Source: Thermoplasmatales archaeon
GTDB taxonomy: Archaea > Thermoplasmatota > Penumbrarchaeia > Penumbrarchaeales > Penumbrarchaeaceae
Reading direction: 5' to 3'
Assembly (NCBI GenBank): GCA_030595715.1
Contig: JAUVCN010000001.1
Coordinates: 1,418 to 65,417, forward strand
Length of the DNA stretch: 64,000 bases
Shown here: positions 27,711-44,249 of the stretch, piece after piece
Layout: each line of letters starts with the position of its first letter
How positions within the stretch are numbered: position 1 is the first letter of the stretch
Made by a program: the position numbers and the translations under genes
The notes under the pieces: model-generated
Seen by the model: only the letters and a program-made list of their open reading frames with translations
Databases searched by the model: none
What the model was told of the DNA's origin: nothing

Positions 27711-28458
27711 TGATCTTCTTCAGAATGAAGAACGGCAGTGATAGGACCAGACCGAAAAGGCAAAGCACGAGTCCTATTGCAACGATCCATCCCATTGTAT
27801 CTATCAAGAAGTTACCCACAGGTGCATCCCATCCGAGGCCACTGAGCAGATTGTCCTGGACCAGTGCCCATACGATGATCAGGACCGTGAACAATGTCAG
27901 ACCCAACCATGAGTTCTTGAAATCCTGTTTGGAGGGGGCCATCGCAGTGGTCAACGATGCAGCCAGGTATAGGTAGAGAATGAACCAGAGGGACCTGTTA
28001 TCGAACAGATTTATCTTGATCAGGTCAAAAGCGGATCTGAATGTGCCGATCAGCATGGAACCCACATTCCATTCGATCGAATGGGTCCATGTGAGATCGC
28101 AGTTGAAGGACCCTACATTATCAAAAAGGAGTGCCAGCAAGATCAACAGAAGTGGGATCCCAAAGAAAGGGGCCATTGAAATGAAAGCCTGTGATAAAAC
28201 ACCACCCCTTTCGGGAGGACCATGCGTAACCGAACCTCCCTCACTACTTATCAATTTGACATTAGTTACATGAGCCCCTGTTATCTTGCAGGCAGCATAA
28301 TGGCTCAGTTCGTGAATGATTATACCTGGCGCCGCAAACACGAGATATATCCATCTACCCAGAGACATCGCCCACATCCTGTCAAGGAAATATGAACAGA
28401 CGATCAGAACGGCAAACCAGAATAGTAGGTCAATAACAGATGATAGCATTGCGATCAC
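27700..28458 (-). CDS. Polytopic membrane protein with an HExxH zinc-metalloprotease motif (M50/DUF3267-like)
   Basis: 252 aa with about 6 TM helices. HELSHY lies at the end of TM2. The gene is convergent with glyS and the two overlap by 11 nt. Confidence 0.6.
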   Translation of the reverse strand: MIAMLSSVIDLLFWFAVLIVCSYFLDRMWAMSLGRWIYLVFAAPGIIIHELSHYAACKITGAHVTNVKLISSEGGSVTHGPPERGGVLSQAFISMAPFFGIPLLLILLALLFDNVGSFNCDLTWTHSIEWNVGSMLIGTFRSAFDLIKINLFDNRSLWFILYLYLAASLTTAMAPSKQDFKNSWLGLTLFTVLIIVWALVQDNLLSGLGWDAPVGNFLIDTMGWIVAIGLVLCLFGLVLSLPFFILKKIIRR

Positions 28459-28530
28459 GATTACATCTTGAAAATATTAAAGTTTATCTAACGGGGAAGG
28501 AATGGATGGGATAGTATCGATCATCCTGCA

Positions 28531-28890
28531 ATACCGTTGTGCGCACTTTGGTTTTTTATAATAATCATATTCTAATCGATAAAACCAAAGTCAATAAAAA
28601 CAAAGAAAAAATGCCGAAATTTCTCGTAAATTGCTCACGTTACTTGTCGATATTCTCGCAATTTCGAGATGCTGCAGCAATGGATCGTCGATTCTACATT
28701 ACCATTGTGCGCACTTTGGTTTTTTACATTAATCATATTCTAGTCAATAAAACCAAAGTCAATAAAAACAAAGAAAAAATGCCGAAATTTCTCGTAAATT
28801 GCTCACGTTACTTGTCGATATTCTCGCAATTTCGAGATGCTGCAGCAATGGTTCGTCAATTATATACTACCATTGTGCGTGTCTTGAAAT
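28531..28890. repeat. Intergenic 168-bp tandem direct repeat, 2 full copies plus about 20 bp of a third, roughly 94% identical
   Basis: The units start at 28534, 28702 and 28870 (ccgttgtgcgcactttggtttttt...). Each unit holds an 11-bp inverted repeat (actttggtttt / aaaaccaaagt) around an AT-rich loop. Confidence 0.85.
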
Positions 28891-29039
28891 TCCATAACAG
28901 CTATAAATCGCTCAGCAATTTCAAGATCTCGTCAATTACATATTGATACGCAAGTTCGAGATCCCGTTCAATTAAACCGTCAATATCTCATTTCATTGAA
29001 CGGATTTTTATTTTCGACACTGATTATACATTGATCAAG

Positions 29040-29080
29040 AAAATAAAAAAAAGGGGAGCTGTTTCCAGCCCCCCATGGTC
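29040..29080 (-). terminator. Hairpin plus oligo-U terminator after the TSP3 surface-protein gene
   Basis: The minus-strand RNA is GGGGGGCUG-GAAA-CAGCUCCCC (9-bp stem, GAAA loop) followed by UUUUUUUUAUUUUC. Confidence 0.6.
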
Positions 29081-29095
29081 AGGTATTGTTATCCT

Positions 29096-32000
29096 TCAAT
29101 CCTTTCTGACCTGATCGATGGGAAAGACCAGCACAGGAAGGACCTCATCCAGACCGATCCTTGCGAGTATCTCATTGATGGTCTCCACCATTTCATCAAC
29201 ATCTATTTCCGGTGTCCCGACCGAGATCGTCAGGATCCTTGATGAGGTCTCCTCGACAGCACCGAATTCAATGGTGGACCTACTTGGTCCAGTTTTTGGA
29301 ACTAGTATGTTTCCCTTTCCAGGCCATGAATCCTTATCAGTGGGGTCCGTATGTCCGCGGTATTCGTAATTATTGTTGTATTTGTCAGAATCATCATCCT
29401 CCTCTGCATCGGTGATACCATTCATATTGGTATCTTTCCTGTCCCCATAGAGTTTGCCGATGTAGTAATCAGGATTGATGCTCAGACCAAACGGAATGAA
29501 GATCCTTCTGCCAACAGTATCGGATGTTGACCATGGGTCCCATGTGACGTTGGTATCCTCGTAGATATAACACTCCGGCTTGTTCCACATGGTCCCATTG
29601 AACAGTTCTTCCCACCCTCTCGGGAGTGAATCATTGTCCTCGAAAGGCTGCGGATCTGATACGTTTCCAATGTAGTCGGTAACCCATACTTCCCAACCAT
29701 CGGGCATCATATCACCATCGGTATCATATCCTCCATTGATGTTGTATTCCAGGTCCCTTGGAGCTGGAGATGTTGTTATCTCATTGATACCATCATTATC
29801 AGGATCGAGACCGAACTGGTATTCGTAGAGATTGATCCACGGGAAGTAATATTCCACCAGCTCGAATTCCGTCTTTGCAGTGTTGAGCGGCGTCCAGATG
29901 GAGTAGACGAAACCGTCATGGTCAGCGTCGAGGGCCCAATCGTCCCCGTCCAGAGGATCGAGGATCCAGGCATACTTCCTCTTCTCAGCATTGTAGAGAG
30001 GAGCACCCCTGTTCTCATCAGCCAGTTCCCAACCATCGGGCATACCATCGCCGTCCGTATCCCATTTCAGTGGGTCCGTACCGTTCTGGTATTCTTCCCA
30101 GTTGGTCAGACCATCGTTGTCCGGATCATCGAACACATCCGAAGGGATCCTGGGGTTGACTACCCAGAAGTGTCCGCCAGGCTGGAGGTTCTGCCAGTAG
30201 TTGGTGGAATAGGTCCTGTCATACCAGAGGATGATCGACTTCGTGTCGGATGATTTGATTATCTTACCATATCGATATTCCCAACCGTCCGGAAGTCCAT
30301 CATAGTCTGTATCGGGTATGGTTGGATTGACCCTGTCATCGGTGGACCAGACGTCACCAAGCTCCACATCGGAGTAGTCACCATCCTGATTGGCGTCATA
30401 GTTATCGTTCCTGTCCCAGTCCACCAGCGGGAAGAAGTCCACAGTGTTCTCAAGACCATCTTCCATACCATCGTTATCAGTATCAGGATCATTTGGATCG
30501 GTGATCCATTCCCTGTAGTTCGGTATCCTGAACAGCTCATCGAAATCGGACATCACATCATGGTCAGTATCCTTCTTGTTTGGATCTGTCCTTACAATAC
30601 CAAGCCTGGACTGTGACCAGATCTTGACGGTATCGATACCGAACAGTTCGTCCACATCATGCCATCCGTCAAGGTCAGTATCGGGGTTGGTTGCATTTGT
30701 CCTTTCAAAGAGAAGTACCTCCCCCTCTGCCTCATCGACCTCACCATCTCCGTCATCATCGAAGCCGTTGTCAGGAAGCACATATTTGGTCATTCCCCTT
30801 GTCTCTTCCCAGTCATCCAGTCTTCGTGATTGGTTACCCTGTTCTCCGCCGGCTTCGGATCCTCCGAAATCGTTATCGGAATCGGCAAGGGTCGCATTGG
30901 TGAAATAGATCGAGGCGATATCAGGATCATAGAAGTAATTGTCACCGATAAGCTCACCATAGAACCCGATCATCAACTCCTCACCATCGGTCAGCCCGTC
31001 ACCATCGGTGTCCGGGTCGTTGGGATTGGTCGATACCGGATACTGTAGTGTCCCCAGGAATTCCTGCAAGTTGGTCATACCATCAGGGATCCTGGTGAAT
31101 ACGACCTGTCCGGTCTCGGTGATGTTCCACCATCCATCATTGTCAGACTCGCCATCGGCGATCATTGGTGAAACGGTGTATATCGTTTTCCTTGAATCTG
31201 ATATCTTGTCCTCCAGGTCCTCCTTGGTGTTAAGAGCAGGTTCCTGCGAGATGATCTTGGCATTGTATGCCTCCCATCCGTCAAGCATCCCGTCACCATC
31301 GGTATCGGGGTTCTTAGGATCCGTCTGGAACCAGAGTGTATCCTTGTTGGGGAAGGCATTCTCGAGATAGTTCGGAAGACCATCGTTATCCAGATCCTTG
31401 AACCTGTCAGTGGAGTTCAACGGATCGAGACCGGTTTCCAGCTCCCAGCCGTCGAACATTCCATCACCATCGGAATCTGCCATATACGGGCAGGTCTTGA
31501 AATCGTTTATTCCGTCCCCGTTCCAGTCAACAGCCGACTTTGCATATTCAACGTTAAGCTCGATGAAGTCGTTGAGGATATATAGCTCACCTGTCAGGGC
31601 GTTGAAGTGGGAATCCCTATCAGTGTCCCAGAGCAAGGGTGAGGTATGGTTCTGATATTCTTCCCTGTTGGAGAGACCATCATTGAAGTAGATCATTATC
31701 TCTGTCTTCTGTCCACCGGAAACAGAGAATGCATACCTGATGTCAAGGTCGTATCCACCATCATTTGGATTGAGTGGTGATATCAGGTCCTTGCTCCATG
31801 CTACAGATGATGCAGAGGTCACTTCAAGTACCTGCTTCGGACCGATAACGGACGCTTCAAGCAGATTGTTGATGGATCCCTCATAGACCAGTGTATCCAA
31901 TCCTGTGAAGAACTCATCCTTGAATTCCTCGGCATAATGGATCTCCCAACCATCATCGATACCGTCGAGGTCAGTATCCCAGAGCGATGGATTCGTTGTG

Positions 32001-32707
32001 ACCGGTTTGTAGATCTGTGGAAGATAGGGATTGTATCTCAGATAATCATCTGCGATATCGTTGTCGATGTTCGTGGGATCGTTCATCAATCCATCGATGG
32101 GATCATCGTAAAGATGGAATCCACCTTTCATGCCGATCTCCTGCCAGTCAAGCACAGGATCCAGCTCACCAAAGGTAGGATCTCCCTTCTCGAAGGCCAT
32201 GGTGGTGAAGTTGAACTCCACTCCTCCCACATATTCCCTGAGATTGAACAGCTCCTCACTCTTGTCGATGACACCGTTGTTGTTCATATCGAATCCATCA
32301 CCATCAGGGTTTCCGTCCCAATCATTGGAGTTTGGATCAATGGTCAACCTCTCGGTGATCGGATTGGGTCTGCTGTAGAGAGCTTCCCACCCATCTTCCA
32401 TGCCATCATAGTCGGAGTCAGGTTTCCTCCAGTCTGTCCCGTAGATATAGTTCTCCTCGATATCGGAGAGCTTATCGGGCCAGTCCTGATATTCATTATC
32501 GATCAGCCTTACATCGGAGTCGGATTTCTTCACACCGACCCAGGAACGTTCAGCCTCCTCGTATGGTCCTCCTTCCTCGATCGCTCCGGTGTTCTCCCAG
32601 GGGACGAAAATATATATGAATATCATTCCGCCCACTGTGGCGATCACCAATCCTATCAAAACTGCTAGAAATTTTTGCATGTCAAGCTTGTCTGCTATGG
32701 ATCCCAT
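29096..32707 (-). CDS. N-terminally anchored giant surface protein with multiple thrombospondin type-3-like Ca-binding repeats
   Basis: 1203 aa with an N-terminal TM (FLAVLIGLVIATVGGMIFIYIF). There are at least 10 DxDxDGxxDGWE repeats, for example DTDGDGMLDGWE, DTDGDGMPDGWE and DPDNDGLTNWEE. Confidence 0.8.
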   Translation of the reverse strand: MGSIADKLDMQKFLAVLIGLVIATVGGMIFIYIFVPWENTGAIEEGGPYEEAERSWVGVKKSDSDVRLIDNEYQDWPDKLSDIEENYIYGTDWRKPDSDYDGMEDGWEALYSRPNPITERLTIDPNSNDWDGNPDGDGFDMNNNGVIDKSEELFNLREYVGGVEFNFTTMAFEKGDPTFGELDPVLDWQEIGMKGGFHLYDDPIDGLMNDPTNIDNDIADDYLRYNPYLPQIYKPVTTNPSLWDTDLDGIDDGWEIHYAEEFKDEFFTGLDTLVYEGSINNLLEASVIGPKQVLEVTSASSVAWSKDLISPLNPNDGGYDLDIRYAFSVSGGQKTEIMIYFNDGLSNREEYQNHTSPLLWDTDRDSHFNALTGELYILNDFIELNVEYAKSAVDWNGDGINDFKTCPYMADSDGDGMFDGWELETGLDPLNSTDRFKDLDNDGLPNYLENAFPNKDTLWFQTDPKNPDTDGDGMLDGWEAYNAKIISQEPALNTKEDLEDKISDSRKTIYTVSPMIADGESDNDGWWNITETGQVVFTRIPDGMTNLQEFLGTLQYPVSTNPNDPDTDGDGLTDGEELMIGFYGELIGDNYFYDPDIASIYFTNATLADSDNDFGGSEAGGEQGNQSRRLDDWEETRGMTKYVLPDNGFDDDGDGEVDEAEGEVLLFERTNATNPDTDLDGWHDVDELFGIDTVKIWSQSRLGIVRTDPNKKDTDHDVMSDFDELFRIPNYREWITDPNDPDTDNDGMEDGLENTVDFFPLVDWDRNDNYDANQDGDYSDVELGDVWSTDDRVNPTIPDTDYDGLPDGWEYRYGKIIKSSDTKSIILWYDRTYSTNYWQNLQPGGHFWVVNPRIPSDVFDDPDNDGLTNWEEYQNGTDPLKWDTDGDGMPDGWELADENRGAPLYNAEKRKYAWILDPLDGDDWALDADHDGFVYSIWTPLNTAKTEFELVEYYFPWINLYEYQFGLDPDNDGINEITTSPAPRDLEYNINGGYDTDGDMMPDGWEVWVTDYIGNVSDPQPFEDNDSLPRGWEELFNGTMWNKPECYIYEDTNVTWDPWSTSDTVGRRIFIPFGLSINPDYYIGKLYGDRKDTNMNGITDAEEDDDSDKYNNNYEYRGHTDPTDKDSWPGKGNILVPKTGPSRSTIEFGAVEETSSRILTISVGTPEIDVDEMVETINEILARIGLDEVLPVLVFPIDQVRKD

Positions 32708-32933
32708 TATATTGCCTCCACGGACAAAATGGCCGGCTCAATATATCGCCATGAAATAACCGTTCCTTTATTAAATCTTTTGGAGAACCTGGCCAGAGGC
32801 CAGGATCACCTGATAAACCGTTCCTTACCCTCAGGTTTGTCAATGGTAATTTGACACTTGTAACTATATAAGCTTGATCATCACATGAACAGGATATCCA
32901 GCTTTGAACAATGAAGCTCCAAAGGGGCCCGAC

Positions 32934-35900
32934 CTAAAGATCAGGGATGTCAGGAGGAGGTGGGAGTTTTGTCAACCCCCTGCTTTCCTGAGGTGATCCG
33001 ATGTCAGTGGCGGGGATCGTTCCTGGATCGGTAGGTCCTGCCTCGGGTTGTTGTTCCGATGGACCAGGTGGAACAAGTTCCGGGGAAACCCCATTCACAT
33101 CGGATAGAATCTCTTGAGGCTGCTGATCGTCGAATGTTGCCTTGTCGGGTTCTCCCATAGGGGAAACCTGATCGGTATCCGGTGGGGACGGAGGCTGCTG
33201 CCACTGTTCCTGATCTGCAGGGTGTGGATCCGTACCCTGCGGAGAATACTGCATCTGAACATCCTGGGAATAGGGATCGGTCACCTGCTGCTCGTATGCT
33301 CCCTGATCCACATAGGCCTCCTGATCCGAATACTGTCCCGTTCCTGGATCTGTATATTCCATCTCGGCCGGAGGAAGGCCCTCATATCCACCCGGGGGTA
33401 TCTCTTGATATCCCATCTCAGCCTGTGGAGGTAATACCGGAAACTCCATTCCGGGAAGCATTGGAGTAACAGACGCAACAGCTTTCGGCTTGTTCCTCTT
33501 CTTCATGACAAGAAACACAAAAATGAACATTACTGCCAGGAACATGACAAGAATAACACCAATATACATCATGATCGGGATGCCCGAATATTTGCTATCG
33601 GGATGATTGCCCGGATCCATCGGATCAAATGACATCGAGATCTCCTTTCCATCGGTCCAACCATCCTCATCCGTATCAGGATTGATAGGATTCAGGTTAC
33701 ATCTATGTTCCATGCAGTATCTGAATTCCTCAAGGTTGGTCAGGCCATCATTGTCCGGGTCGAGATCGGCATCGGATCTATCTGTGGGATCAAGCCCGTA
33801 TCTTCTCTCCCATGCATCATCCATCTCGTCACCATCCTGATCAGGATCCGGTTCAGGGGCAACGACCGATAGGAGGACGGTTACCTCGTCGGAATAGGCC
33901 TTTCCATCGAATATCCTCAAGGTTGCCGTATATGATCCGCCATCGACATAGGTATGCTCGACCCTGTTCATATCGATCCCTTGAACGAGGGGGGTCCCAT
34001 CCCCGAAGTCCCAGATATAGGTCAGGTCATCTCCATCTTCATCATCTCCTTCAGGAGTGTTGAAGAATACAGTAAGATTACCATCTGTAGCATCGAAATA
34101 GACATTCTCTATCTGCGGAACGTCATTGACGTTCTGAATTGTCACCTTGCACACCCCCCAATCCGATAGGAGGGACAGGTCACTTACTGTGATATTGATC
34201 TCCCATTCACCGTTCATCTCTTCCGTTATTGCTTTCAGTATCAATCTTCCGGTCTGCGGGTTGAAATCAATGGCATTTGGAGGCGCTGCAAGTGATAGTG
34301 CCCCAAGTTCGAAACCGAACATCAATTGATCACCGTTGTCGATATCAGGATCGGTTGCCACCGGATTGATGTAGAGATACTCGTCCTCTATGGTGGACTT
34401 TGATGCAGGAACGATGATCGTTGGAGGATCGTTGACATTCGAAACCTCCACAATAACGCTCATTTCAGCTTCTCCATCATTGCCATCTTCCACCCAGACC
34501 ATCAGTTCTACCTCTGGAATGTCGTCATCCCCTGGGATGAACCACATCTCACCGGATGTGTGATTGATCAAGAAGTTCACACCCGGAACAGGATCCGAAA
34601 GGACCTCCTCTATATTCCAGTCGAATGATAGAATATCCCACTCATCAATATCTTCTGCTACCATGCTCAGAACGACCTTTTCATCCTGTTCTTTCTGGAA
34701 CCGGATAAGAACATCCTGTTCATCAACAGACCTTGTGCCTATCCTCTTTATCACAGGTGGATCGTTCACCTCTCGAACCTGAAGCCAGATATCGAGTTCG
34801 GCAAATTTCCTAAATGTCCCGTCATCAGTGGCATTTATTGTAAGAACGAATGTCCCGAACTTGTTCGCCTTCGGGGTCACGATCAACAGATTTGGTTCAC
34901 CTGATGTCTGTGGAGGTTTGATAAAGGCCGTAATATTATCATCTCTGTAGGATTGAATCCATTCACCGTTTGGTGCAAGTATCGAGAACTCGAATTTTGT
35001 TGTGGGATCCGGATCTGTGAACAGAGGATCAAGATCGATCTCGTAAGTGGGTGAATCTTCCTCAAGTTCCACCAGATATACCTCACCAACGGCTGATGAT
35101 GGAGGAAGATTATCATCAATAATGACAGTGAACGTTTCCAGTGCATCGAGGGAGTGGAAAGCCCAATCCTTACCATCGAACGCGGAGAAGTTCAACGTAT
35201 GAACCGCATCCTTTCCCAGGATGGAACCGGGAACATCCACACCATAGATGACGCCTGCTGCGTGATCTGACCCACTTCCGGATATTGGGGATAGTTCCCT
35301 GAAAGGTTCCTCATCATTCCAGACCCATATCTGCCTGGGGGTCTCATTGTTGGCATCGACATATTCGACCCTGAATTCGAATATATCGGTCGACCTGCCC
35401 CTCTCAAGATTTACCGTGGGGTTTTTCAGGATGGGGCGGTTGTTCGGGATATCAGGATATATCGAGCCGGTGAACGAATAAGATGTGGACCCCTGTATAT
35501 CGCTGTATGTCTTCTGATTTATATTGGGGGTAATACCATTTATACCAAATGTCTGGATCACCATACCTATCACCATGCGGGTGCAGTTCTTCCGGAGGTA
35601 AAGATGATAGGGTTCTGCTTCCAGACCTGCAGACTGGAAGGTCGGATTGGGAGATATTCTCTTTATTTCATTGGTGTATTGACCCGGATTCGATCTGGAA
35701 TTATAACTGATATACAGGTCGACCTCGATCCCGTAATCTATTGTTCCTCCGCTGGTGTTCGGCGTAGGATTGCTGAAAGATAACATCATATCAACGACGG
35801 TAGGATGGATCGGGTTTGGAGCATTTATCTCATACCAGTCCATCAGGTCCCGGTCCTGGTCAAGGCCACCGATCAAGCCTCCTGTCATCGGGGTTGGGAG

Positions 35901-36491
35901 GGCCTCATCATTGCTTGGATCCATGGGCGGAACTGAAGATATCGTCACTGTGAAATTGTAGGATACTGTTCCAGAGACAGATGATCCGGTCCCGTTCTGA
36001 GCAAGGATCCTCACACCATATATTCCTGAATAGGAAGCATCAGCCGTGCAAATCTGGGGAAACCATGGATCCTCCTGGTAGGCTTTCAGGTTGAGGACTA
36101 TCTCATCATTGGTCCCGTGGTTAAGATTATTATTTGGATAGAATGCATAGATCAGGACGAAAACATAGTCGTAAAAGTAATTGGTGTCCAGATAGAGATA
36201 GGAGATCTCCAGCCTGTCAACCAAGGGACCATTTCCCCCATTCAGAACGATGTAGAAAAGATCATTATCCCCCTGGGTCAGATTCCCATGAAGTTCATAG
36301 TTACCATGGGTATTCGGAAGAAGATCTGCGCTAGTCCAGGCATCATTGCTTTCCGATTCCTCCACTATGGTCCTTGTTGGTGTTGATGATAGAGGCTCCG
36401 CATCATGGGACTCTGTTGCCACTACCATGAAGACCGATGACAGAAGCAGCAAGACCATGATGATCGACGGTATATTCTTTCCAGGGAACAT
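32934..36491 (-). CDS. Type-I surface protein with cadherin-like repeats, a PKD domain, TSP3 repeats, a TM helix and an acidic Pro/Gln-rich cytoplasmic tail
   Basis: 1185 aa with a signal peptide. Cadherin-type boundaries VREVNDPPVI, VSNVNDPPTI and IQNVNDVPQI. PKD motif WDFGDGT...HTY. TSP3 motifs DPDQDGDEMDDAWE and DTDEDGWTDGKE. TM helix IGVILVMFLAVMFIFVFLV. The tail is roughly 190 aa, rich in D, E, P and Q. Confidence 0.8.
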   Translation of the reverse strand: MFPGKNIPSIIMVLLLLSSVFMVVATESHDAEPLSSTPTRTIVEESESNDAWTSADLLPNTHGNYELHGNLTQGDNDLFYIVLNGGNGPLVDRLEISYLYLDTNYFYDYVFVLIYAFYPNNNLNHGTNDEIVLNLKAYQEDPWFPQICTADASYSGIYGVRILAQNGTGSSVSGTVSYNFTVTISSVPPMDPSNDEALPTPMTGGLIGGLDQDRDLMDWYEINAPNPIHPTVVDMMLSFSNPTPNTSGGTIDYGIEVDLYISYNSRSNPGQYTNEIKRISPNPTFQSAGLEAEPYHLYLRKNCTRMVIGMVIQTFGINGITPNINQKTYSDIQGSTSYSFTGSIYPDIPNNRPILKNPTVNLERGRSTDIFEFRVEYVDANNETPRQIWVWNDEEPFRELSPISGSGSDHAAGVIYGVDVPGSILGKDAVHTLNFSAFDGKDWAFHSLDALETFTVIIDDNLPPSSAVGEVYLVELEEDSPTYEIDLDPLFTDPDPTTKFEFSILAPNGEWIQSYRDDNITAFIKPPQTSGEPNLLIVTPKANKFGTFVLTINATDDGTFRKFAELDIWLQVREVNDPPVIKRIGTRSVDEQDVLIRFQKEQDEKVVLSMVAEDIDEWDILSFDWNIEEVLSDPVPGVNFLINHTSGEMWFIPGDDDIPEVELMVWVEDGNDGEAEMSVIVEVSNVNDPPTIIVPASKSTIEDEYLYINPVATDPDIDNGDQLMFGFELGALSLAAPPNAIDFNPQTGRLILKAITEEMNGEWEINITVSDLSLLSDWGVCKVTIQNVNDVPQIENVYFDATDGNLTVFFNTPEGDDEDGDDLTYIWDFGDGTPLVQGIDMNRVEHTYVDGGSYTATLRIFDGKAYSDEVTVLLSVVAPEPDPDQDGDEMDDAWERRYGLDPTDRSDADLDPDNDGLTNLEEFRYCMEHRCNLNPINPDTDEDGWTDGKEISMSFDPMDPGNHPDSKYSGIPIMMYIGVILVMFLAVMFIFVFLVMKKRNKPKAVASVTPMLPGMEFPVLPPQAEMGYQEIPPGGYEGLPPAEMEYTDPGTGQYSDQEAYVDQGAYEQQVTDPYSQDVQMQYSPQGTDPHPADQEQWQQPPSPPDTDQVSPMGEPDKATFDDQQPQEILSDVNGVSPELVPPGPSEQQPEAGPTDPGTIPATDIGSPQESRGLTKLPPPPDIPDL

Positions 36492-36619
36492 AGGGACACC
36501 CTCTACTGGATAATATTCCAGTTACATACGATATCGATTATAAGAGTTGTGATAGAATATTACCATTGGCATATTAGATGTGATCCTGAATACCCGGCTC
36601 TTCAAGGACCATGCCAGAC

Positions 36620-37936
36620 TCAGGGATATGCCCTTGTCATGGTCCTCGGGAAAGGAATGGCATCCTTGATGTTTTCCAGCTTGCATATCCATGCTATCAA
36701 TCTCTCGACACCGAGTCCATATCCCGAATGCTGGACCGAACCGTATCTCCTTAGATCAAGATACCAGTCATAGCTCTCGACGCTCTCTCCTTCCTTTTCG
36801 AGGGCCATGGAAAGTGACTCGATATCGGTATCCCTCTCGGATCCTCCAACGATCTCCCCATAACCCTCCGGCGCAAGGATATCGAAACATTTGGCAACAG
36901 GCCCTGGTGCATCCGCCCCTTCAAGGACCGGCTTGTAGAAGGCCATTGCTTCTTTTGGATATTCAACAACTCCAACAGGAGTGTCGAAAAGCTTCATCAG
37001 CTCCTCCTCCTCGACCGTCCTCAGGTCCTTGCCCCATTGCACATCCATCCCTGCCTTATCATTGAGAATTCCAAGTGCCTCTGTATACGTGATGACAGGC
37101 CATTCCTTCTCAAGAATATGGACCAATCCATCCGGGTCCACTTCCAGGATCTCAAGGTCACCTATGTTGTTCTCGAGAACCTTCTTGATGATGAACCTGA
37201 TCTCGTCCATTGCTATCTGAACAGCTTCCCTGTATCCGATCCATGCGGCTTCCATCTCTGCCATCCAGAACTCACTGAGATGCCTGGATGTCTTCGACCT
37301 CTCTGCCCGGAAGGTTGGTGAGACATCATATATCTTCTCCAGTGAGAATATGGCTGCTTCTGCATAGAGTTGCCAGGTCTGGGTCAGATAAATGGACCTA
37401 TCGTAATACTTAACTTCGAAAAGTGTCGATCCGCCTTCTGCCTGATTGGGTGTGAAAATTGGAGGTGTGAACTCGTGATATCCTTTCTTTCTGAAGAACT
37501 CATGGATGGCACCGGTAACGGTGGATCTTACCTTCAAGATGGCATTCATCTTTCTTGATCTGATCCATAGATGCCTGTTCTCCCTGAGGAATTCCTCCGA
37601 CTGGTCCTTTGTGATCGGGAACCTATCAGCCTTCGATATGGTCCTGACATCGTTCATGTGGACCTCGTATCCTCCGGGGGCCCTGTCATCTTTGTTCACA
37701 TTTCCTATGACGATGACAGAAGACTCCACCGGAAGATCCTTGGCGACGGTGAACAGATCATCTCCGAGGTCCGATCTGGATGCCACACATTGTATAATGC
37801 CTGTTGAATCCCTGATGACCATGAAAAGCATCTTGTTGCTACCTCTGGTCCGATAGATCCAACCTCTCAACCGTACCTCTGCTCCCTGGTAGCCTGGGTC
37901 CTTTGCTTCCTGAATGCTGATCGGTTCCTCATCCAT
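36620..37936 (-). CDS. aspS: Class IIb aminoacyl-tRNA synthetase, aspartate--tRNA ligase-like (Asp versus Asn specificity not resolved)
   Basis: 438 aa with an OB anticodon-binding N-domain and class II motifs (FRAERSKTSRHLSEFWMAEME, GLGVERL). The flipping-loop motif reads TQTWQLY rather than QSPQ. Confidence 0.75.
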   Translation of the reverse strand: MDEEPISIQEAKDPGYQGAEVRLRGWIYRTRGSNKMLFMVIRDSTGIIQCVASRSDLGDDLFTVAKDLPVESSVIVIGNVNKDDRAPGGYEVHMNDVRTISKADRFPITKDQSEEFLRENRHLWIRSRKMNAILKVRSTVTGAIHEFFRKKGYHEFTPPIFTPNQAEGGSTLFEVKYYDRSIYLTQTWQLYAEAAIFSLEKIYDVSPTFRAERSKTSRHLSEFWMAEMEAAWIGYREAVQIAMDEIRFIIKKVLENNIGDLEILEVDPDGLVHILEKEWPVITYTEALGILNDKAGMDVQWGKDLRTVEEEELMKLFDTPVGVVEYPKEAMAFYKPVLEGADAPGPVAKCFDILAPEGYGEIVGGSERDTDIESLSMALEKEGESVESYDWYLDLRRYGSVQHSGYGLGVERLIAWICKLENIKDAIPFPRTMTRAYP

Positions 37937-38001
37937 ATCACGGCCTCCATACGCTCAGGCGCCTTGAAGGAATGCCCCCTATATTAGGTTTAAGAGCGGG
38001 A

Positions 38002-41000
38002 TCATGGCCTTCTTCCGACCGGACGTCTCCTGCCACCTGGCCCATCATCCTCGATCTCGGCCATTCTAGATGAAGCATTTCGGTCCATATGCGATCTCCT
38101 TCTCTCCCTCGGGACCCTTTCCCTGCTTTCCCCGGCACCCGGCCTTCTGGACCCGGGTGACCTGGACCTACCTCTTCCGAACTCCCTTTCACTCTCGATC
38201 ACCTGCTTTTGCTGGATCCACTCCTCTCTCAATCTCTGGTTCCTTATTAGCAGGAAAACGACTATGATGATCGCGATCACGATCAAGATCATAATGAAAA
38301 TGGTCATGGGGACGTCGAGATCGTTCTTCTCCTTCTCTCCGGGATCATCCTGGACAAGGACAACTGTTATCTGGATCTCCTCGAGTTCCCAGTTACCCGA
38401 AATATCCTCTGCAATGACCTGAATGATATACATGCCGATATCCAGGGTCAGGATCAGGTGCCATGAGGTGGTACCTTCCGCTACAATCCAATCGCCTCCT
38501 TTCACCCTCACCCGGACCTGAAGCCATCCTGAATCGTCCAATGCGGTCCCTGTTATGGTGATATTGCCGTTCTCATGCCTTGAATTGTTCGCCGGTGACA
38601 GGATGGTCAACGTGGGAGGTTCATTATCCACCATTGAAGAAGTGTCGTATGTATAATGGATATCCATCTCCCTTATGTTTCCAGCAACGTCTTCTGCCTC
38701 GATCGTGAAGATATTCTCACCGGGTTCGAGAGTGACCACCCATTCGAAGGTCATGTTTCTCGAGAGCAATCGCGAGGCACCCGTTGAATTCGATCCTCTG
38801 ACAGCTTTTATTCCGCTGTTATCATACACTTCCCCCTGGATAAGGATGACAACTGTCCTGAAAGTAGACCGGTCAAGGGGCAGGATCCGATCGAACGTCG
38901 GTTTCTCGGTATCGTATATCACATCAAAAAAGATATCATTGACATTTCCTGCCCGATCCCTGGATGATATCGATATATTGTTCCTTCCCATGTAAAGTTC
39001 CACAACAGTGGAGAAGAGGCCATCTTGTTCGACATCGACCGGAATACCGTTCACCATCATATCAGCATCAGCTTCGGTCCATCCAGATATTGCCATATCC
39101 TTGTTGTTCGTGTACATGGGAGGTCTTATCATTTCGATGGATGGGGCAAGCGTGTCCACGAAGATATTCACAGAGGATGAGCCTACACTGCCGGTCTTAT
39201 CGAGGACCTCGACAGATATCCTGTTGATCCCTTCCTTCATGTCTTCAAGACGATATGAAAAACCCCTGAGGTCAAAATCGATCTCCACACCATTCAAAAT
39301 TACCATCACCGTATCATGTGAGATCGCTCCTTCCACAATGATCCAATCATTCTTCGTCCTTGTTCCATTTGCGGGGGACAGGATCATCACTGTTGGAGGT
39401 GTGGTATCGAGATCGATGGTCCTGATGATCCGAACGGTATTACCAGCCTGGTCCACCGCCTCGATCACTATGGAATTCCTTCCTTCTTTCAGGTATATAT
39501 CGAATGAGAATGTCCCATCCGAATGTGGTGCCAGATTCTCATCTATGTACAATCTGGCATCGACATCACACGATCCCTCAACCTTGATCGGGGTGAGGTT
39601 CGTGTATATGCCCTCGATTGGAGAGGTGACCGTCAATGATGGATCCACCGTGTCGATACCAAAATGGGTGAATGCCTCTGAAAACTTTCCATCATCGTTC
39701 ATTGTCCTCAATCTCAGATCATGTTCACGGTCGGATCCGAAATCAAGGTGGATCTCGAAGTTCTTGCTGGGTGTCATGAGGATCTCATTTCCACCATCAA
39801 GGAACATCGAAAAACTGACCAGTGGTCTCGGATCTGTGATCGTACCGGTTATCACAATGGACCTGGTATCGAACCATGTATTGTTCAGAGGTGAGCCGAT
39901 CTTGATCATCGGTTCTGATATGAGGACCTCTATCGTCTCGAATGTCCTTTCGAGAACGTTGAAGGACTTTGACCTCACAGCACCCTCATAAAGAACAGCC
40001 AACTGATGAGGATCATTACTATATTTACCGGTCGAATTGTAGTGGAATGCTATCAGAGGAAGGTCCGTTATCCATCCATTATCATCGGTCAGGGCCTGTC
40101 TCTCTACCTTCCCATCGGAACCTGATATCTCAACATCTGCCAACTTTGCCGGGAATCCGTTGTTCGTTGTTACCCCGATGTCGAACCTGTAAGCCTCGGT
40201 GACAACACTACTACCCTCGACCTCAACACCGCTCAGGGTCGTATTGAGGAGATGAATGATGGAAGGACCGGATCCAGACGTGACCAGAAGGAGATCATTG
40301 CCGATCTGCATGGGGTAGCAATCCATCAGTTCAATATTTGAAGAAATTGATTCCATCGCGAACATATACATACCATGGAGCCCGCTGTTTCTCATTTCAA
40401 TGTTCGATCGCTTGGAAAGAAGGGAAAGACCCGATTCCTGGAAGAAGTTCATATCTGCCATGACATTGGAATCCTCGGCATAGATAGCATTTCCCGGGAT
40501 GTTCGTTATGTTCACCCTGTTCGAGAGCAGGTATGAATCCTCGATCAGATGGATACCTTCGTCGTTACAGTTGGATATGGATGAATCCCTGATGGACATG
40601 TTCGCTCCATCTCCGATCAGTCCGATATTGCAAAATTGAATTGTACTGCAGTTCATGTAGAAATTGTCTGTTTCTATGTAGGGCCCGCTTTCTCGCAGCG
40701 GCCGCATGGGCAGACCACATCCATTTATGGTTGACCCGTTTATCTCGACATAAGAACCATCATGAGCCTCGAAAAAGAATATGGAACCATTGAGACCCAT
40801 GAGTTCGGAGCCGTTCCTGAGAACGAATGTCGCGTCATTGAGTACATAGATAGTGTTGGAAGCCATGCCGGATATGTTCATTCTGAGCGTAATATTATCC
40901 AGGATCAACGATCCTGAAACTGTCAGGTTCCCGTGTACATCTATGATGGAATCCTTATATGTCTCTGTCCCTGTGACAGACCAGTCTCCCGATATCGGTG

Positions 41001-41136
41001 GTGAGATTGGAACATTATCCATTTCAAGTTCATGACCATTTGCCCCAATCAACGGCAGGAATGACATTGAAAGAAGAGCAACTAATATCATGGTGACGAT
41101 CAGTAACTTTTGATCCGAACCCCGAAAACCGAACAT
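38002..41136 (-). CDS. Type-I surface protein with a right-handed beta-helix (pectate-lyase-like) region and Ig-like domains, a TM helix and an Arg-rich cytoplasmic tail
   Basis: 1044 aa with a signal peptide. Parallel beta-helix repeats (NCSTIQFCNIGLIGDGANMSIRDSSISNCNDEGIHLIED). TM helix IFIMILIVIAIIIVVFLLI. The C-terminus is RSRSPGSRRPG...RRRPVGRRP. Confidence 0.75.
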   Translation of the reverse strand: MFGFRGSDQKLLIVTMILVALLSMSFLPLIGANGHELEMDNVPISPPISGDWSVTGTETYKDSIIDVHGNLTVSGSLILDNITLRMNISGMASNTIYVLNDATFVLRNGSELMGLNGSIFFFEAHDGSYVEINGSTINGCGLPMRPLRESGPYIETDNFYMNCSTIQFCNIGLIGDGANMSIRDSSISNCNDEGIHLIEDSYLLSNRVNITNIPGNAIYAEDSNVMADMNFFQESGLSLLSKRSNIEMRNSGLHGMYMFAMESISSNIELMDCYPMQIGNDLLLVTSGSGPSIIHLLNTTLSGVEVEGSSVVTEAYRFDIGVTTNNGFPAKLADVEISGSDGKVERQALTDDNGWITDLPLIAFHYNSTGKYSNDPHQLAVLYEGAVRSKSFNVLERTFETIEVLISEPMIKIGSPLNNTWFDTRSIVITGTITDPRPLVSFSMFLDGGNEILMTPSKNFEIHLDFGSDREHDLRLRTMNDDGKFSEAFTHFGIDTVDPSLTVTSPIEGIYTNLTPIKVEGSCDVDARLYIDENLAPHSDGTFSFDIYLKEGRNSIVIEAVDQAGNTVRIIRTIDLDTTPPTVMILSPANGTRTKNDWIIVEGAISHDTVMVILNGVEIDFDLRGFSYRLEDMKEGINRISVEVLDKTGSVGSSSVNIFVDTLAPSIEMIRPPMYTNNKDMAISGWTEADADMMVNGIPVDVEQDGLFSTVVELYMGRNNISISSRDRAGNVNDIFFDVIYDTEKPTFDRILPLDRSTFRTVVILIQGEVYDNSGIKAVRGSNSTGASRLLSRNMTFEWVVTLEPGENIFTIEAEDVAGNIREMDIHYTYDTSSMVDNEPPTLTILSPANNSRHENGNITITGTALDDSGWLQVRVRVKGGDWIVAEGTTSWHLILTLDIGMYIIQVIAEDISGNWELEEIQITVVLVQDDPGEKEKNDLDVPMTIFIMILIVIAIIIVVFLLIRNQRLREEWIQQKQVIESEREFGRGRSRSPGSRRPGAGESRERVPRERRRSHMDRNASSRMAEIEDDGPGGRRRPVGRRP

Positions 41137-41182
41137 ATGACTTCATTGCTTCACTTTATTAAATAGGTTTCAGGTGGACATC

Positions 41183-42382
41183 TCATTCCTGCCCCGCTGG
41201 TTCTTCCACATGAGGTTCCGTTCCTGGAAGAGGTTCATCTTCAGTTATCTTTGAAGATCCATCGTTCGAAGGAGGTGGGGTAGAGATGTCGGAGGGGGCC
41301 TCCTCTGCAGGGGCTTGTTCCTCCATAACCTCCTCCTTATGATCTTGTTCCAGTGTGTCCGATGAAGGATCAGATCCCTCTGGAACTTCCTGTTGATGCT
41401 CTCCATACAGGTCCTCCTGTGTAAGGACCTCCTGCAGGGGTTCTTCCACGCTACCCTGTTCCGGGTAATCTTCGATCGGGGAAGGTGCTACAGGCATTGC
41501 TTCCATCGATGCTATGTCAACTTGCTCCTGTTCGCCCTCCAATGGAACTGCCATCATCAACTGTCCCTCCATTGGCATGGATGTTATTGCTTCCATTCCT
41601 ATGCTATCAGGTGATGTGATCGGGCCTCCGATCCTCGTTGCAGTTCCCAAGAAATCATATTCGTCCATGGAAGTTGAATTGTACAATTGTGCATACTGCT
41701 CAGGGTCCAGATAGTAGACCTTGTCCTCGATTATGGACCTGAACGCATAGTAAGGTCCATCTTCAGGGTTGAAGAACAAATTTGCATCCTTTGACCTTCG
41801 CCTGAAGAACATTATTGTCGCAACTATTGTGAGGATAATTGCAATGATGATGGCAAATGCCATAATAATGGGTAATAAATTCATCCCCTCATCCTCTGGA
41901 ACATTGTTCACATTATAGACTATCCTCAAACGAACGGTAGCATTTTCCCAGGCTCCGGGAACAGTATCGCTTTCCTGCTGAGGATTGAAGAACATGATCG
42001 ATTTGTCTTTATTGTTGGGGTTCTCAACATCTACTGACATCAAGGTAGATACATTCGTCCTTACGAAAATTGATTGTTCCTCAGCGATCTCATAACTTCG
42101 TACGTTGATCGACCGGGATGAGTCCAGGATCAATATGTTGATACCCCGGGGTATAAAATCATCGGAAGATGCTGACTTGAAGACTATTGTCAGTTCCAGG
42201 ATATCTCCTTTGGAATCAAAATCTTCCAATGTCAAAGGAATAGGGACCCCTGGTGGAACCGGATATGGATCGATAGTGACCTTACCTTCGGAATCTTCCG
42301 AGATGAACGCTATGAATGCTACAGCAAATATCACTGATACTGCTAATATTGGAAAGATCTTCCTCATACAGGACACCCCCAA
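41183..42382 (-). CDS. Type-I membrane protein with an acidic cytoplasmic tail
   Basis: 399 aa with a signal peptide, a roughly 150-aa ectodomain and the TM helix LLPIIMAFAIIIAIILTIVATIMFF. The tail is E/P/Q-rich and resembles the tail of 32934..36491. Confidence 0.6.
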   Translation of the reverse strand: MGVSCMRKIFPILAVSVIFAVAFIAFISEDSEGKVTIDPYPVPPGVPIPLTLEDFDSKGDILELTIVFKSASSDDFIPRGINILILDSSRSINVRSYEIAEEQSIFVRTNVSTLMSVDVENPNNKDKSIMFFNPQQESDTVPGAWENATVRLRIVYNVNNVPEDEGMNLLPIIMAFAIIIAIILTIVATIMFFRRRSKDANLFFNPEDGPYYAFRSIIEDKVYYLDPEQYAQLYNSTSMDEYDFLGTATRIGGPITSPDSIGMEAITSMPMEGQLMMAVPLEGEQEQVDIASMEAMPVAPSPIEDYPEQGSVEEPLQEVLTQEDLYGEHQQEVPEGSDPSSDTLEQDHKEEVMEEQAPAEEAPSDISTPPPSNDGSSKITEDEPLPGTEPHVEEPAGQE

Positions 42383-42417: not shown

Positions 42418-42478
42418 ATTTAATGATAAAATAAAGGGAAAATAAAGGATAACAGGAAGATCTCATCGACCTTCCTGT
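42418..42478 (-). terminator. Hairpin plus U-rich terminator after secY
   Basis: The minus-strand RNA is AACAGGAAG-GUCGAUGAGAUC-CUUCCUGUU (9-bp stem) followed by AUCCUUUAUUUUCCCUUUAUUUU. Confidence 0.5.
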
Positions 42479-42485
42479 TCCATCA

Positions 42486-44249
42486 TCACTCCCTGCCGAA
42501 GAATCCTCTTAGAACAGGATGCATCTCCATCATCTGTTCCTTTCCGATCTGTTCGTACAGTCTGATGATGATACCCACGGTTAGCAGCACCCCTGTTCCC
42601 GAGGTGGAACCCACCGTTCCTACCATGTCAGCCAGGGCTGCAAGCAAACCCACAAAAGCTCCTGATATCACGGTCACGGTTGGTATATACCTGTTCAGAA
42701 CCTTCTTCAGGACCCTGGGATCCCTCCTGAAACCGGGTATTCTCATCCCTGAGCTCTGGATCTGCTGGGCCACGGATTCCGGACCCATGTTGGTTGTCTC
42801 TATCCAGAACTTTGCGAAAAGTATCGAGCCGATGGCCATTATTCCGACGTAGACGACAACGTGAACGGCTATCTGCCAGTACTCGTGATCACCCACATAT
42901 CCGCTGTACCTGTCCCAGTTTATCAACGGTAGAAGCCATGCCTGGAGACCGTTCACCCTTGAAACATACCAGGCTAGACCTCCGGCCGGCGCTGTAGAGC
43001 CCACATCATAGAATCCCAACCGCCAGTTATGGCCAAGGACCGGGATGGTGGATATCTTTGCGTGATTCCAGAGTAAAAGAGAGAACATATTGATGTTTGC
43101 GAGTAACGCTGACATCAGGATAACAGGGATGTTGGATGCATAGATCAGTCTGATCGGATATCTTCCCCTGGCGCCCCTCGCTTTTGCATGGGACAATGGA
43201 AGCTCGATCTGGGTCGATTCGGCGAATGCCACCACAAAGAATATCACAATCGTCGATAGCAGTGCCACCAGAGGATTCGGCGGAGACAGGAATATGGTTT
43301 CAAATCCCCCCGATGTAAGGTCCCGTATCCCTCCCGAAAGATTGTCAAGGATATACCAGGTCTTTGGAAGCGTCCCCGCAGGGATCGCTCCAGCATTATC
43401 CACCAGTCGATCCAGGTTGTACTGCTCGGCGGTTTTCGTTCCCAGGGGGATCCATGATAGCGTCCCCTGGAATATCGATTGGGAAACACCCGCTGCAATG
43501 AACATGGATATTCCCGACCCTATACCCCATTTGGAGATCACCTCATCCATCAAGAAGACGAGATAGGATCCGAACACAAGCTGGCCAATGATGACTATCC
43601 TGGCCCATCCCTCACCTATGCTTCCCATCCATTTGTCGCTGGATGGTTCAAGGTAGCCATACACCTGTGGAATGGCTTCGACGAAGATCATCACAAGGAC
43701 CAATACCTTCTGGACACCCTGATAGATCGCCTTGTCATCAGACTTCTTGAGATCGAGATTGATGATCTTGGCTCCCGAGAACAGCTGCATTATGATCGAA
43801 CCCGTAACTATAGGTCCGATACCAAGATGCATCAGTGAGCCGTTGGCTCCGGCCAGGATCGCCCTGAACTCGGAGAATATATCAAGACTTTCTCCGGACA
43901 AGCCGTAAAGTGTTACATTGCTTAGGAAGAAATACAGGATCAATATCCCGAAGGTCCAGAGCATCTTCGTCCTGAACCTTACATGACCTTCAGGTTTCTT
44001 GACAGCTGGCCATCGATCTGATAATGGTTTGAGGCCGTATAGTTTTGACCCCTCGCCAGCATATGTGATGGTCATACCAATGAGGAAGAAAGATATTCCG
44101 ATCGCTAGTGCTATCAATATGAACAGCGAGATATCAGCGAACTTCGTGAAGTCCGCATCTCTCCACTGCCAGAAGTACAAGATGACCATGGTTGCCAAGT
44201 AGGCAATGGCCACCCAAATGGCCTTTCTGTAATCACGCTCAATAGCCAT
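42486..44249 (-). CDS. secY: Preprotein translocase subunit SecY
   Basis: 587-aa ORF. The conserved SecY N-terminus (WPAVKKPEGHVRFRTKMLWTFGILILYFF) begins around residue 78, and GIGPIVTGSIIMQLF is present. The first roughly 75 aa are either a 2-TM extension or lie upstream of the true start (Met59). Confidence 0.9.
   Translation of the reverse strand: MAIERDYRKAIWVAIAYLATMVILYFWQWRDADFTKFADISLFILIALAIGISFFLIGMTITYAGEGSKLYGLKPLSDRWPAVKKPEGHVRFRTKMLWTFGILILYFFLSNVTLYGLSGESLDIFSEFRAILAGANGSLMHLGIGPIVTGSIIMQLFSGAKIINLDLKKSDDKAIYQGVQKVLVLVMIFVEAIPQVYGYLEPSSDKWMGSIGEGWARIVIIGQLVFGSYLVFLMDEVISKWGIGSGISMFIAAGVSQSIFQGTLSWIPLGTKTAEQYNLDRLVDNAGAIPAGTLPKTWYILDNLSGGIRDLTSGGFETIFLSPPNPLVALLSTIVIFFVVAFAESTQIELPLSHAKARGARGRYPIRLIYASNIPVILMSALLANINMFSLLLWNHAKISTIPVLGHNWRLGFYDVGSTAPAGGLAWYVSRVNGLQAWLLPLINWDRYSGYVGDHEYWQIAVHVVVYVGIMAIGSILFAKFWIETTNMGPESVAQQIQSSGMRIPGFRRDPRVLKKVLNRYIPTVTVISGAFVGLLAALADMVGTVGSTSGTGVLLTVGIIIRLYEQIGKEQMMEMHPVLRGFFGRE

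Follow-up and report, generated by a model that had tools for sequence, protein, structure and literature searches.

In a 64,000-nucleotide stretch of DNA from a Thermoplasmatales archaeon (GenBank assembly GCA_030595715.1, contig JAUVCN010000001.1, positions 1,418 to 65,417; hereafter the window), four genes between positions 29096 and 42382 encode envelope proteins, which we designate p399, p1044, p1185 and p1203 after the lengths of their open reading frames (ORFs). The safest statement is that they are four core envelope proteins, class-specific or phylum-wide, encoded in a housekeeping neighbourhood. We further propose, with the chances about evenly balanced, that the four are core components of a membrane-tethered protein coat on the cell exterior, with p1203 as its scaffold and the gene for asparaginyl-tRNA synthetase (AsnRS) lying among theirs. 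Directly observed were the integrity of the genes, the domains and topology signals of the proteins, orthology throughout the clade, the conserved charge and motifs of the cytoplasmic tails, and the exceptional conservation of p1203.

All four genes lie on the minus strand, in the order p399 (41183-42382), p1044 (38002-41136), p1185 (32934-36491) and p1203 (29096-32707). An earlier note on this DNA had counted four proteins here. The four ORFs, of 399, 1044, 1185 and 1203 aa, are real, but a fifth gene was overlooked, that for AsnRS (36620-37936, minus strand, 438 aa). It was identified by its match to the NCBIfam asparagine--tRNA ligase family (462.6 bits against a cut-off of 414), and lies between p1044 and p1185. 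Pseudogenisation, which the same note had raised as a possible objection, was not found: each of the four genes is a single open frame with a length like that of its orthologues (1200-1225 aa for p1203, 1166-1229 aa for p1185, 1016-1047 aa for p1044 and 369-417 aa for p399). At one related locus (L001, identical with L014), the p1044 orthologue is frameshifted at ~14040-14350, in the stretch encoding the transmembrane (TM) helix, with the Arg-rich tail in another frame, and the p1203 orthologue on this contig is frameshifted near its C-terminus. These frameshifts are probably assembly errors, not pseudogenes. The SecY gene (42486-44249) is located directly upstream of the block, and an archaeal ribosomal-protein operon comes next. 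The rest of the window is housekeeping in character, with genes for FtsZ, RNA polymerase subunits, a DnaG-type primase, Trm56, a class II aminoacyl-tRNA synthetase (aaRS) and the beta subunit of phenylalanyl-tRNA synthetase.

Related loci were surveyed using AsnRS as an unbiased anchor, with one genome per species, and then by tblastn with all six proteins. The order SecY-p399-p1044-AsnRS-p1185-p1203 was found in 16 of 16 species loci with an AsnRS at least 71% identical to that of the window, as far as the contigs reach, and the AsnRS gene occupied the same place in all 16. On the other hand, none of the four genes was present at the locus in any of 64 loci with an AsnRS of 69% identity or less. 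The 16 syntenic loci are all from uncultured Thermoplasmatota, including 'ex4484_6' and the metagenome-assembled genome M17C-73-04. The latter is classified as EX4484-6 (PMC10477458), a class that was named Ca. Penumbrarchaeia (PMC12220078), and the source organism of the window belongs to this class. Identity to the window protein across the clade was 81-89% for SecY, 71-81% for AsnRS, 62-84% for p1203 (nine species loci), 38-55% for p1185, 31-46% for p1044 and 27-46% for p399. p1203 sets itself apart from the other three proteins in conservation, and also in codon usage and breadth of its family.

Membrane topology was assigned from hydropathy and the positive-inside rule, and the flank charges were consistent in 11-17 orthologues per family. 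In p1185, p1044 and p399, a signal-like segment is present at the N-terminus and a single apolar span of ~24 residues towards the C-terminus, with 4-5 K/R in the 15 residues after this span and 1-1.6 before it. The TM helices are encoded on the minus strand at 33504-33581 (p1185, residues 971-996), 38245-38313 (p1044) and 41804-41878 (p399). p1203 has a single N-terminal span of 23 apolar residues (32603-32671, minus strand, residues 13-35); in the orthologues, the short stub before it, which ends in Lys, and the acidic C-side are both conserved. These features support the view that all four proteins are exported by the Sec-type route and anchored as single-pass surface proteins with large acidic ectodomains, in keeping with the earlier placement of the large domains outside the cell. 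N-glycosylation sequons numbered 12, 12, 19 and 2 in the four ectodomains, against 9.4, 8.7, 10.6 and 1.5 expected, and 0-1 in the tails.

The two strongest coding-strand sites with a hairpin followed by a T-run lie precisely on either side of the five genes, p399 through p1203. The best one, after p1203 (29045-29074, minus strand), consists of a hairpin at 29074-29053 and T8 and marks the downstream boundary of the block; the second-best, after secY (42451-42479, minus strand), is a hairpin with a T-rich tract at the upstream boundary. The total of such terminator-like sites in the scan was not above that in shuffled sequences (15 against 11.2 ± 3.3). In five of six orthologous loci, six or more T in a row come after p1203, and the internal spacers mostly lack runs of five T or more. 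TATA-like boxes were located ahead of AsnRS, p1185 and p1203. A scan of the window for bacterial-type promoters gave 24 sites against 25.9 in shuffles, as expected, since the host is an archaeon. A single transcription unit from p399 to p1203, with internal promoters, would be plausible.

The N-anchored protein p1203

p1203, a type II surface protein, contains 14.5% Asp and carries a net charge of -184. Pfam PF18884 (TSP3_bac, a family of thrombospondin type-3 repeats, TSP3) matched it in four stretches with 34.7 bits against a cut-off of 25. The strict motif D-x-[DN]-x-[DN]-G-x-x-[DN]-x-x-[ED] was counted 14 times by regular expression between residues 97 and 1103 (29399-32419, minus strand), in accord with the previous count of at least ten repeats. 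The Asp residues of these putative calcium-binding motifs were invariant in a 54-sequence alignment of the family.

The ectodomain (residues 36-1203) was modelled with AlphaFold2 (AF2) from the 54-sequence alignment, with a mean predicted local distance difference test (pLDDT) score of 85.4 and a predicted template modelling score (pTM) of 0.58. Coil predominates in the model, alongside short helices and small sheets. No counterpart was found among the solved structures in the PDB, and a profile search of PDB sequences returned only motif-level calcium-binding matches, to C2 toxin component II and lanmodulin. The signature domain of eukaryotic thrombospondin/COMP was recovered neither by sequence nor by fold.

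Conservation of p1203 is uniform over residues 50-1050, and its family is arranged in tiers. Below the orthologues, the same genomes contain paralogues of ~50% identity with unrelated gene surroundings; both p1203 and p1044 have paralogues elsewhere in the genome of a relative. Next are relatives of 1,100-1,450 aa at ~35-45% identity, and then a large set of 974-aa marine proteins with 26-29% identity over ~70% of the length. The family thus spans the Thermoplasmatota, marine group II (MGII) included, and 102 of the 120 best matches have the same architecture, namely one N-terminal apolar segment, none at the C-terminus, 10-16 TSP3 motifs and 14-18% Asp. Thrombospondin genes are reported to be widespread in MGII archaea (PMC6461757), and the 974-aa proteins are probably among them. 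A paper on MGII transcription contains no expression data for the TSP3 family.

Some of these relatives have neighbours of their own. At two loci from distant lineages (L085, 14292-15626, and L087, 14450-15817), a p1203-family gene is followed by one for a type I membrane protein of ~450 aa that both lineages share and whose basic tail is very short; the two ~450-aa proteins are 32% identical (E 2e-60). As a conserved partner of p1203 this protein was rejected, being unrelated to all four proteins and to anything in the window; possibly, it is an alternative partner of this scaffold family. The marine 974-aa relative, found on 25 contigs, adjoins in L082 (8001-18925) a 1974-aa Big_3_5/DUF4129 protein, a DUF4350 protein and a MoxR-type AAA ATPase.

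Codon usage was compared between the 15 ribosomal-protein genes of the window, which served as the reference for the codon adaptation index (CAI), and 26 other genes. p1203 had the highest CAI of the 26 (0.743; ribosomal mean, 0.722). When amino-acid composition was controlled, p1203 had a z score of +3.4 and grouped with RpoB, RpoA and FtsZ, and p1185 (-2.4), p1044 (-1.9) and p399 (-4.3) fell outside this group. The codon usage of p1203 is thus like that of the ribosomal proteins, and p1203 may be highly expressed. The term 'adhesin-like', which had been applied to p1203, fits it poorly, because p1203 evolves as slowly as housekeeping genes. We propose that it is unlike an adhesin in its slow evolution, its well-adapted codons, its occurrence throughout the phylum, and a large ordered polyanionic body with putative calcium sites. 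It is already known that cultured Thermoplasmatales, which lack an S-layer, have a dense, unordered exterior protein layer (EPL) of ~20 nm, consisting of membrane-associated glycoproteins and seen by cryo-tomography (PMC12448462); the EPL proteins were left unnamed in that study. The traits unlike those of an adhesin, together with this unordered layer, are the reason why p1203 is proposed here as a coat scaffold.

A regular paracrystalline S-layer would be a different structure, in which p1203, or p1044 together with p1185, self-assembles as a lattice that is the cell wall of the class. This is very unlikely in our estimation. p1203 is acidic, probably abundant, universal in the clade and membrane-anchored, as would be suitable for such a lattice, and the arrangement recalls an N-anchored stalk protein under a canopy, like SlaB and SlaA of Sulfolobus. 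However, none of the four proteins matched an S-layer family in Pfam or NCBIfam at E ≤ 0.01. A PGF-CTERM or other archaeosortase sorting signal was not found either: NCBIfam gave no PGF-CTERM match, and the C-termini are charged tails of 78-210 aa after the TM helix or, in p1203, have no TM helix. Moreover, coil-rich TSP3 wires are not known to form lattices, and the cultured Thermoplasmatales have no S-layers (PMC12448462). The previous statement that no characterised archaeal surface system matches these proteins was borne out by these searches, and the only relatives among solved structures were generic PKD domains.

Type I proteins and their cytoplasmic tails

p1185 was described earlier as a protein with cadherin-like and PKD domains, TSP3 repeats, a TM helix and a tail. 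PKD domains scored above their cut-offs (PKD_4, 48.4 against 27 bits; PKD, 44 against 23.5), as did Big_9 (28.1 against 23.6), and two strict TSP3 motifs and three VND(P/V)P motifs are present; Cadherin_4 scored slightly under its cut-off (23.5 against 25.1 bits). The membrane-proximal stalk with three TSP3 motifs (33642-33848, minus strand, residues 882-950) is homologous to residues 411-479 of p1203 (46% identity, E 6e-11). The first 556 residues matched no Pfam family, even at E = 10. The p1185 family consists of 12 full-length orthologues, past which only matches to the PKD domains were obtained.

In p1044, Glucodextran_B Ig-like domains were matched four times (155.9 against 27 bits), and Big_7 gave 64.8 bits against 24.1. 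Beta_helix was slightly under its cut-off (23.2 against 25.9) and is recorded for the L001 orthologue with no mark of weakness. The earlier description of p1044 as a beta-helix and Ig-like protein with a TM helix and an Arg-rich tail is thus sustained, with an Ig-like array above cut-off and a beta-helix near the threshold.

The beta-helix of p1044 and the 556-aa N-terminal region of p1185 could also be a lyase, hydrolase or protease of a degradative machinery on the cell surface, to which the PKD, Ig and TSP3 modules would be accessory. Collagenases and other secreted hydrolases have PKD domains that match these, polysaccharide lyases are among the beta-helix folds, two proteins with C25-type peptidase domains are encoded in the window, and the class, which has genes for extracellular peptidases, uses protein for growth (PMC12220078). 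However, no catalytic family was detected in any of the four proteins, with the N-terminal region of p1185 searched at E up to 10, and p1203 and p399 have no enzyme-like features. We regard this explanation as highly improbable.

p399 is the small type I protein of the set, and it was earlier taken as a single-pass protein of 399 aa. The ORF is intact and has a single C-terminal span, but the probable length is 394 aa. The start is probably ATG 42367 (gene 41183-42367, minus strand), which is used in the identical deposited protein P0001 and before which a Shine-Dalgarno-like GGGGTGA box can be read directly in the sequence. Exact searches of a contig index with AsnRS and P0001 gave no match. 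p399 matched nothing in Pfam or NCBIfam. Its family gave six matches in a word-indexed search and 28 clusters among 1.84 billion representatives, with uniform architecture. In the AF2 model, the ectodomain is a jelly-roll beta-sandwich (pLDDT ~70-79), and Foldseek found only generic jelly-rolls, namely capsids, the p24 GOLD domain, carbohydrate-binding modules and TNF-like lectins, at TM-scores of ~0.45-0.55 relative to the target. From such generic matches, the function of p399 cannot be deduced.

Directly after the TM helix, p399 has a cytoplasmic module of 55-65 residues (41609-41803, minus strand, residues 194-258), FFNPExGPYYAFR..YY.D..QY..LY....LG..R.GG. Ten positions of the module, most of them aromatic or Gly, do not vary in an alignment that covers 10 of the 12 proteins. 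A second conserved patch of this tail is SMEAxPVAxP. The module had no Pfam match, even at E = 10, and a profile search of PDB sequences gave marginal matches to the hemopexin-like LS-24 (E 0.002) and to cell-wall-binding repeats of clostridial toxins (0.02). A GYF-like identity, considered for the module, was dropped in view of the empty Pfam search, the marginal matches to hairpin repeats and the low-confidence AF2 model.

The cytoplasmic tails of the three type I proteins are long and charged. That of p1185 (32937-33497, minus strand, residues 999-1185) has 187-190 aa with a net charge of -24, 19% Pro and 12% Gln, and that of p399 has ~206-212 aa with a net charge of -39. The Arg-rich tail of p1044 (38005-38238, minus strand) is basic, also in its orthologues, with 78-80 aa, a net charge of +10 and 29% K+R. 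In the orthologues, the tails were 142-219 aa long with net charges of -12 to -39 for p1185 (11 of 11), 127-220 aa with -2 to -39 for p399 (12 of 12), and 47-115 aa with +1 to +13 for p1044 (16 of 17); the sole exception, L014, is the frameshift mentioned above, in which the Arg-rich tail continues in the other frame. Tail length and the sign of the charge are thus kept across ~11-17 orthologues each, in tails whose sequence is for the most part unalignable.

Several short elements of the p1185 tail are conserved. These are a juxtamembrane RNKPKA, the pattern YQxxPP...GY...LPPA, and the C-terminal motif, which in the window is LPPPPDIPDL-COOH (32937-32966, minus strand), is conserved in the orthologues as PPPPxLPDL and has the consensus [LIVM]P[PSAT][PL]Px[LIVM]P(D/E)(L/I). 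In a six-frame translation of ~300 kb, made up of the window and the clade loci, the pattern [LIVM]P[PSAT][PL]Px[LIVM]P occurred only at the C-terminus of p1185, in seven proteins (that of the window and six orthologues), and in six of the seven it lies 2-3 residues from the C-terminus. The conserved sign of charge and the conserved short motifs speak for a function of the tails. The Arg-rich p1044 tail might pair electrostatically with the acidic tails, and coupling from tail to tail is a speculation.

A proposed exterior coat or independent adhesins

From the observations above, we infer the following role in a coat, including any interaction of the tails. The four vertically inherited proteins would be exported via Sec and remain anchored in the cytoplasmic membrane through a single helix each. 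p1203, with its N-terminal anchor and polyanionic body of ~1,170 residues, would form the main scaffold of the exterior coat, rigidified by calcium. The type I proteins p1185 and p1044 would project ligand-binding arrays of beta-sandwich and beta-helix domains through or above this coat, with p1185 standing on its TSP3 stalk homologous to p1203, and p399 would be a small accessory protein of type I. The long disordered tails may dock cytoplasmic partners or one another through the sign of their charge and through short motifs, namely PPPPxLPDL in p1185 and the aromatic hairpin module in p399.

The same genes may instead encode independent adhesins or substrate-capture proteins of a sediment heterotroph, in which case the tails would be inert spacers or topology determinants and the adjacency would come only from collinearity. 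PKD, cadherin-like, Ig-like, beta-helix and TSP3 modules are characteristic of adhesins in prokaryotes, and the 'thrombospondin' genes of MGII were interpreted as adhesion genes (PMC6461757). However, conservation at the level of housekeeping genes over the whole length, as in p1203, is unusual in an adhesin. All four genes were found at this place in every clade locus that reaches them, despite the paralogues of p1203 and p1044 elsewhere, and the charge sign and short motifs of the tails are under selection. On balance, we consider independent adhesins somewhat unlikely.

Several points weigh against the coat, and the first two of them equally favour adhesins. p1185, p1044 and p399 evolve fairly fast, at 27-56% identity, and their codons are poorly adapted, as would be the case for adhesins. 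Collinearity runs on past p1203, to an M50B-like peptidase and then a class II aaRS in four further species, and the collinear neighbourhood in the clade reaches from the ribosomal proteins through these two genes. Therefore, the synteny reflects orthology and persistence and is weak evidence for functional coupling. Co-location need not mean co-function, as a tRNA synthetase gene interrupts the block, and the proposal of one 'apparatus' in the earlier note is not sustained: with this gene among the four and the whole neighbourhood collinear, nothing shows a joint machine. The range of codon usage in the window is narrow, so that codon adaptation is supportive evidence only. The acidic tails of p1185 and p399, which had been called matching, are alike in composition, but their homology was rejected, as BLASTP between them gave E = 0.5. 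For none of the tail motifs was a partner identified, and the hairpin plus helix that AF2 predicts for the p399 module has a pLDDT below 50.

A wider form of the coat proposal is quite unlikely in our judgement, but it can be stated. Thermoplasmatota without an S-layer would build a coat from a p1203-family TSP3 scaffold of a fold not seen before, and in Ca. Penumbrarchaeia this coat would be wired inward by the type I receptor-like proteins, whose disordered, oppositely charged tails would use their motifs (PPPPxLPDL of p1185 and the p399 module) to recruit partners or cluster receptors. If true, this would be a prokaryotic analogue of signalling by the tails of adhesion receptors.

Neighbouring genes and known systems

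A polytopic zinc metalloprotease of M50B/DUF3267 type with an intact HELSH motif (27700-28458, minus strand) is encoded directly downstream of p1203, and its gene is kept at this place in L005, L007, L011 and L013. It is speculative that an intramembrane M50B-like protease beside four single-pass proteins could process their anchors. Just past the p1203 terminator is a 168-nt tandem duplication (28516-28851), the two copies of which are 93% identical. The 135-aa ORF over it (28539-28946, plus strand) had no tblastn match in the related loci and is probably not a gene. Further along, a 606-aa Lys/Glu-rich protein (17877-20602, minus strand) has ~24-aa tandem repeats (EEDPAGEKVEEPSAEKVKVPSKK) on both sides of a coiled-coil core and is followed by a 301-aa coiled-coil DUF7121 protein; this region accounts for the strong AT skew at 18-20 kb, and the two proteins may be cytoskeleton-like or scaffold proteins. 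Two proteins with an N-terminal anchor and a Peptidase_C25 (gingipain-type) domain are encoded at 15863-17851 (minus strand) and 59529-61928 (plus strand), the match of the latter being weak (E 2.5e-4, under the cut-off). They are further surface proteins of a protein-degrading lineage. Rfam and tRNA scans of the window found no RNA genes.

The four proteins are described in no paper in the literature, and the paper on Penumbrarchaeia mentions neither S-layer, adhesins, PKD nor thrombospondin (PMC12220078). In that study, this class made up ~90% of an enrichment amended with protein. The sequences have already been deposited as hypothetical or 'PKD domain-containing' proteins, and their kind, modular archaeal surface proteins, is known. 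What this analysis adds to the deposited annotation is the fixation of the genes beside secY throughout the clade, the finding that p1203, the N-anchored TSP3 protein, is conserved almost like a housekeeping gene and has a predicted fold with no solved match, the conservation of long, charged cytoplasmic tails and of a polyproline motif at the C-terminus, and the orphan juxtamembrane module of p399. The envelope of most Thermoplasmatota, including the abundant MGII, has never been assigned to proteins, and p1203 is a concrete candidate for a main component of the exterior layer, as it is slow-evolving, probably well expressed and phylum-wide, with a confidently predicted, unmatched fold. There are few descriptions of conserved charged tails or C-terminal proline motifs from archaea, and the tails and motifs of the type I proteins would offer a handle on what lies under the membrane of possibly wall-less cells. 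Even if the proteins are ordinary adhesins, the annotation would be useful for a poorly known class.

Among known systems, the TSP3_bac or MGII 'thrombospondin' proteins are similar to p1203 in their repeated DxDxDGxxDxxE motifs, and the 974-aa relatives from marine lineages have the N-terminal anchor in common with p1203 and can be aligned over 66-76% of it. p1203 differs from the MGII proteins as a strongly conserved, single-copy orthologue of 1,200 aa, fixed beside the secY block. The best NCBIfam matches of p1203 were CglD and MtsD of Myxococcus (NF033765 and NF047639), which are also large acidic surface proteins with many TSP3 repeats. However, the scores of 82.2 against 400 and 19.8 against 800 are far under the equivalog cut-offs and indicate similarity at the level of the repeats only; CglD and MtsD are bacterial outer-membrane lipoproteins of gliding and cohesion, whereas p1203 is an N-anchored archaeal protein.

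p1185 and p1044 share the modular beta-sandwich architecture of Ig-like, PKD and cadherin-like adhesins (Big_9, Cadherin_4, PKD, Glucodextran_B and Big_7). Unlike in those adhesins, the arrays end in a TM helix, after which come 50-220 aa of cytoplasmic tail whose charge sign and short motifs are conserved, and p1185 is limited to one archaeal class. In the cytadherence of Mycoplasma, single-pass adhesins have acidic proline-rich (APR) intracellular regions that are thought to be joined to internal scaffolds. The resemblance to the APR proteins is an analogy only, drawn for a possibly wall-less cell, and no internal scaffold was identified here. The EPL of Thermoplasmatales belongs to the same phylum, and large, single-pass anchored ectodomains such as those of the four proteins would give a coat of this kind, although in another class, so that the link of p1203 and its neighbours to the EPL is one that we infer.

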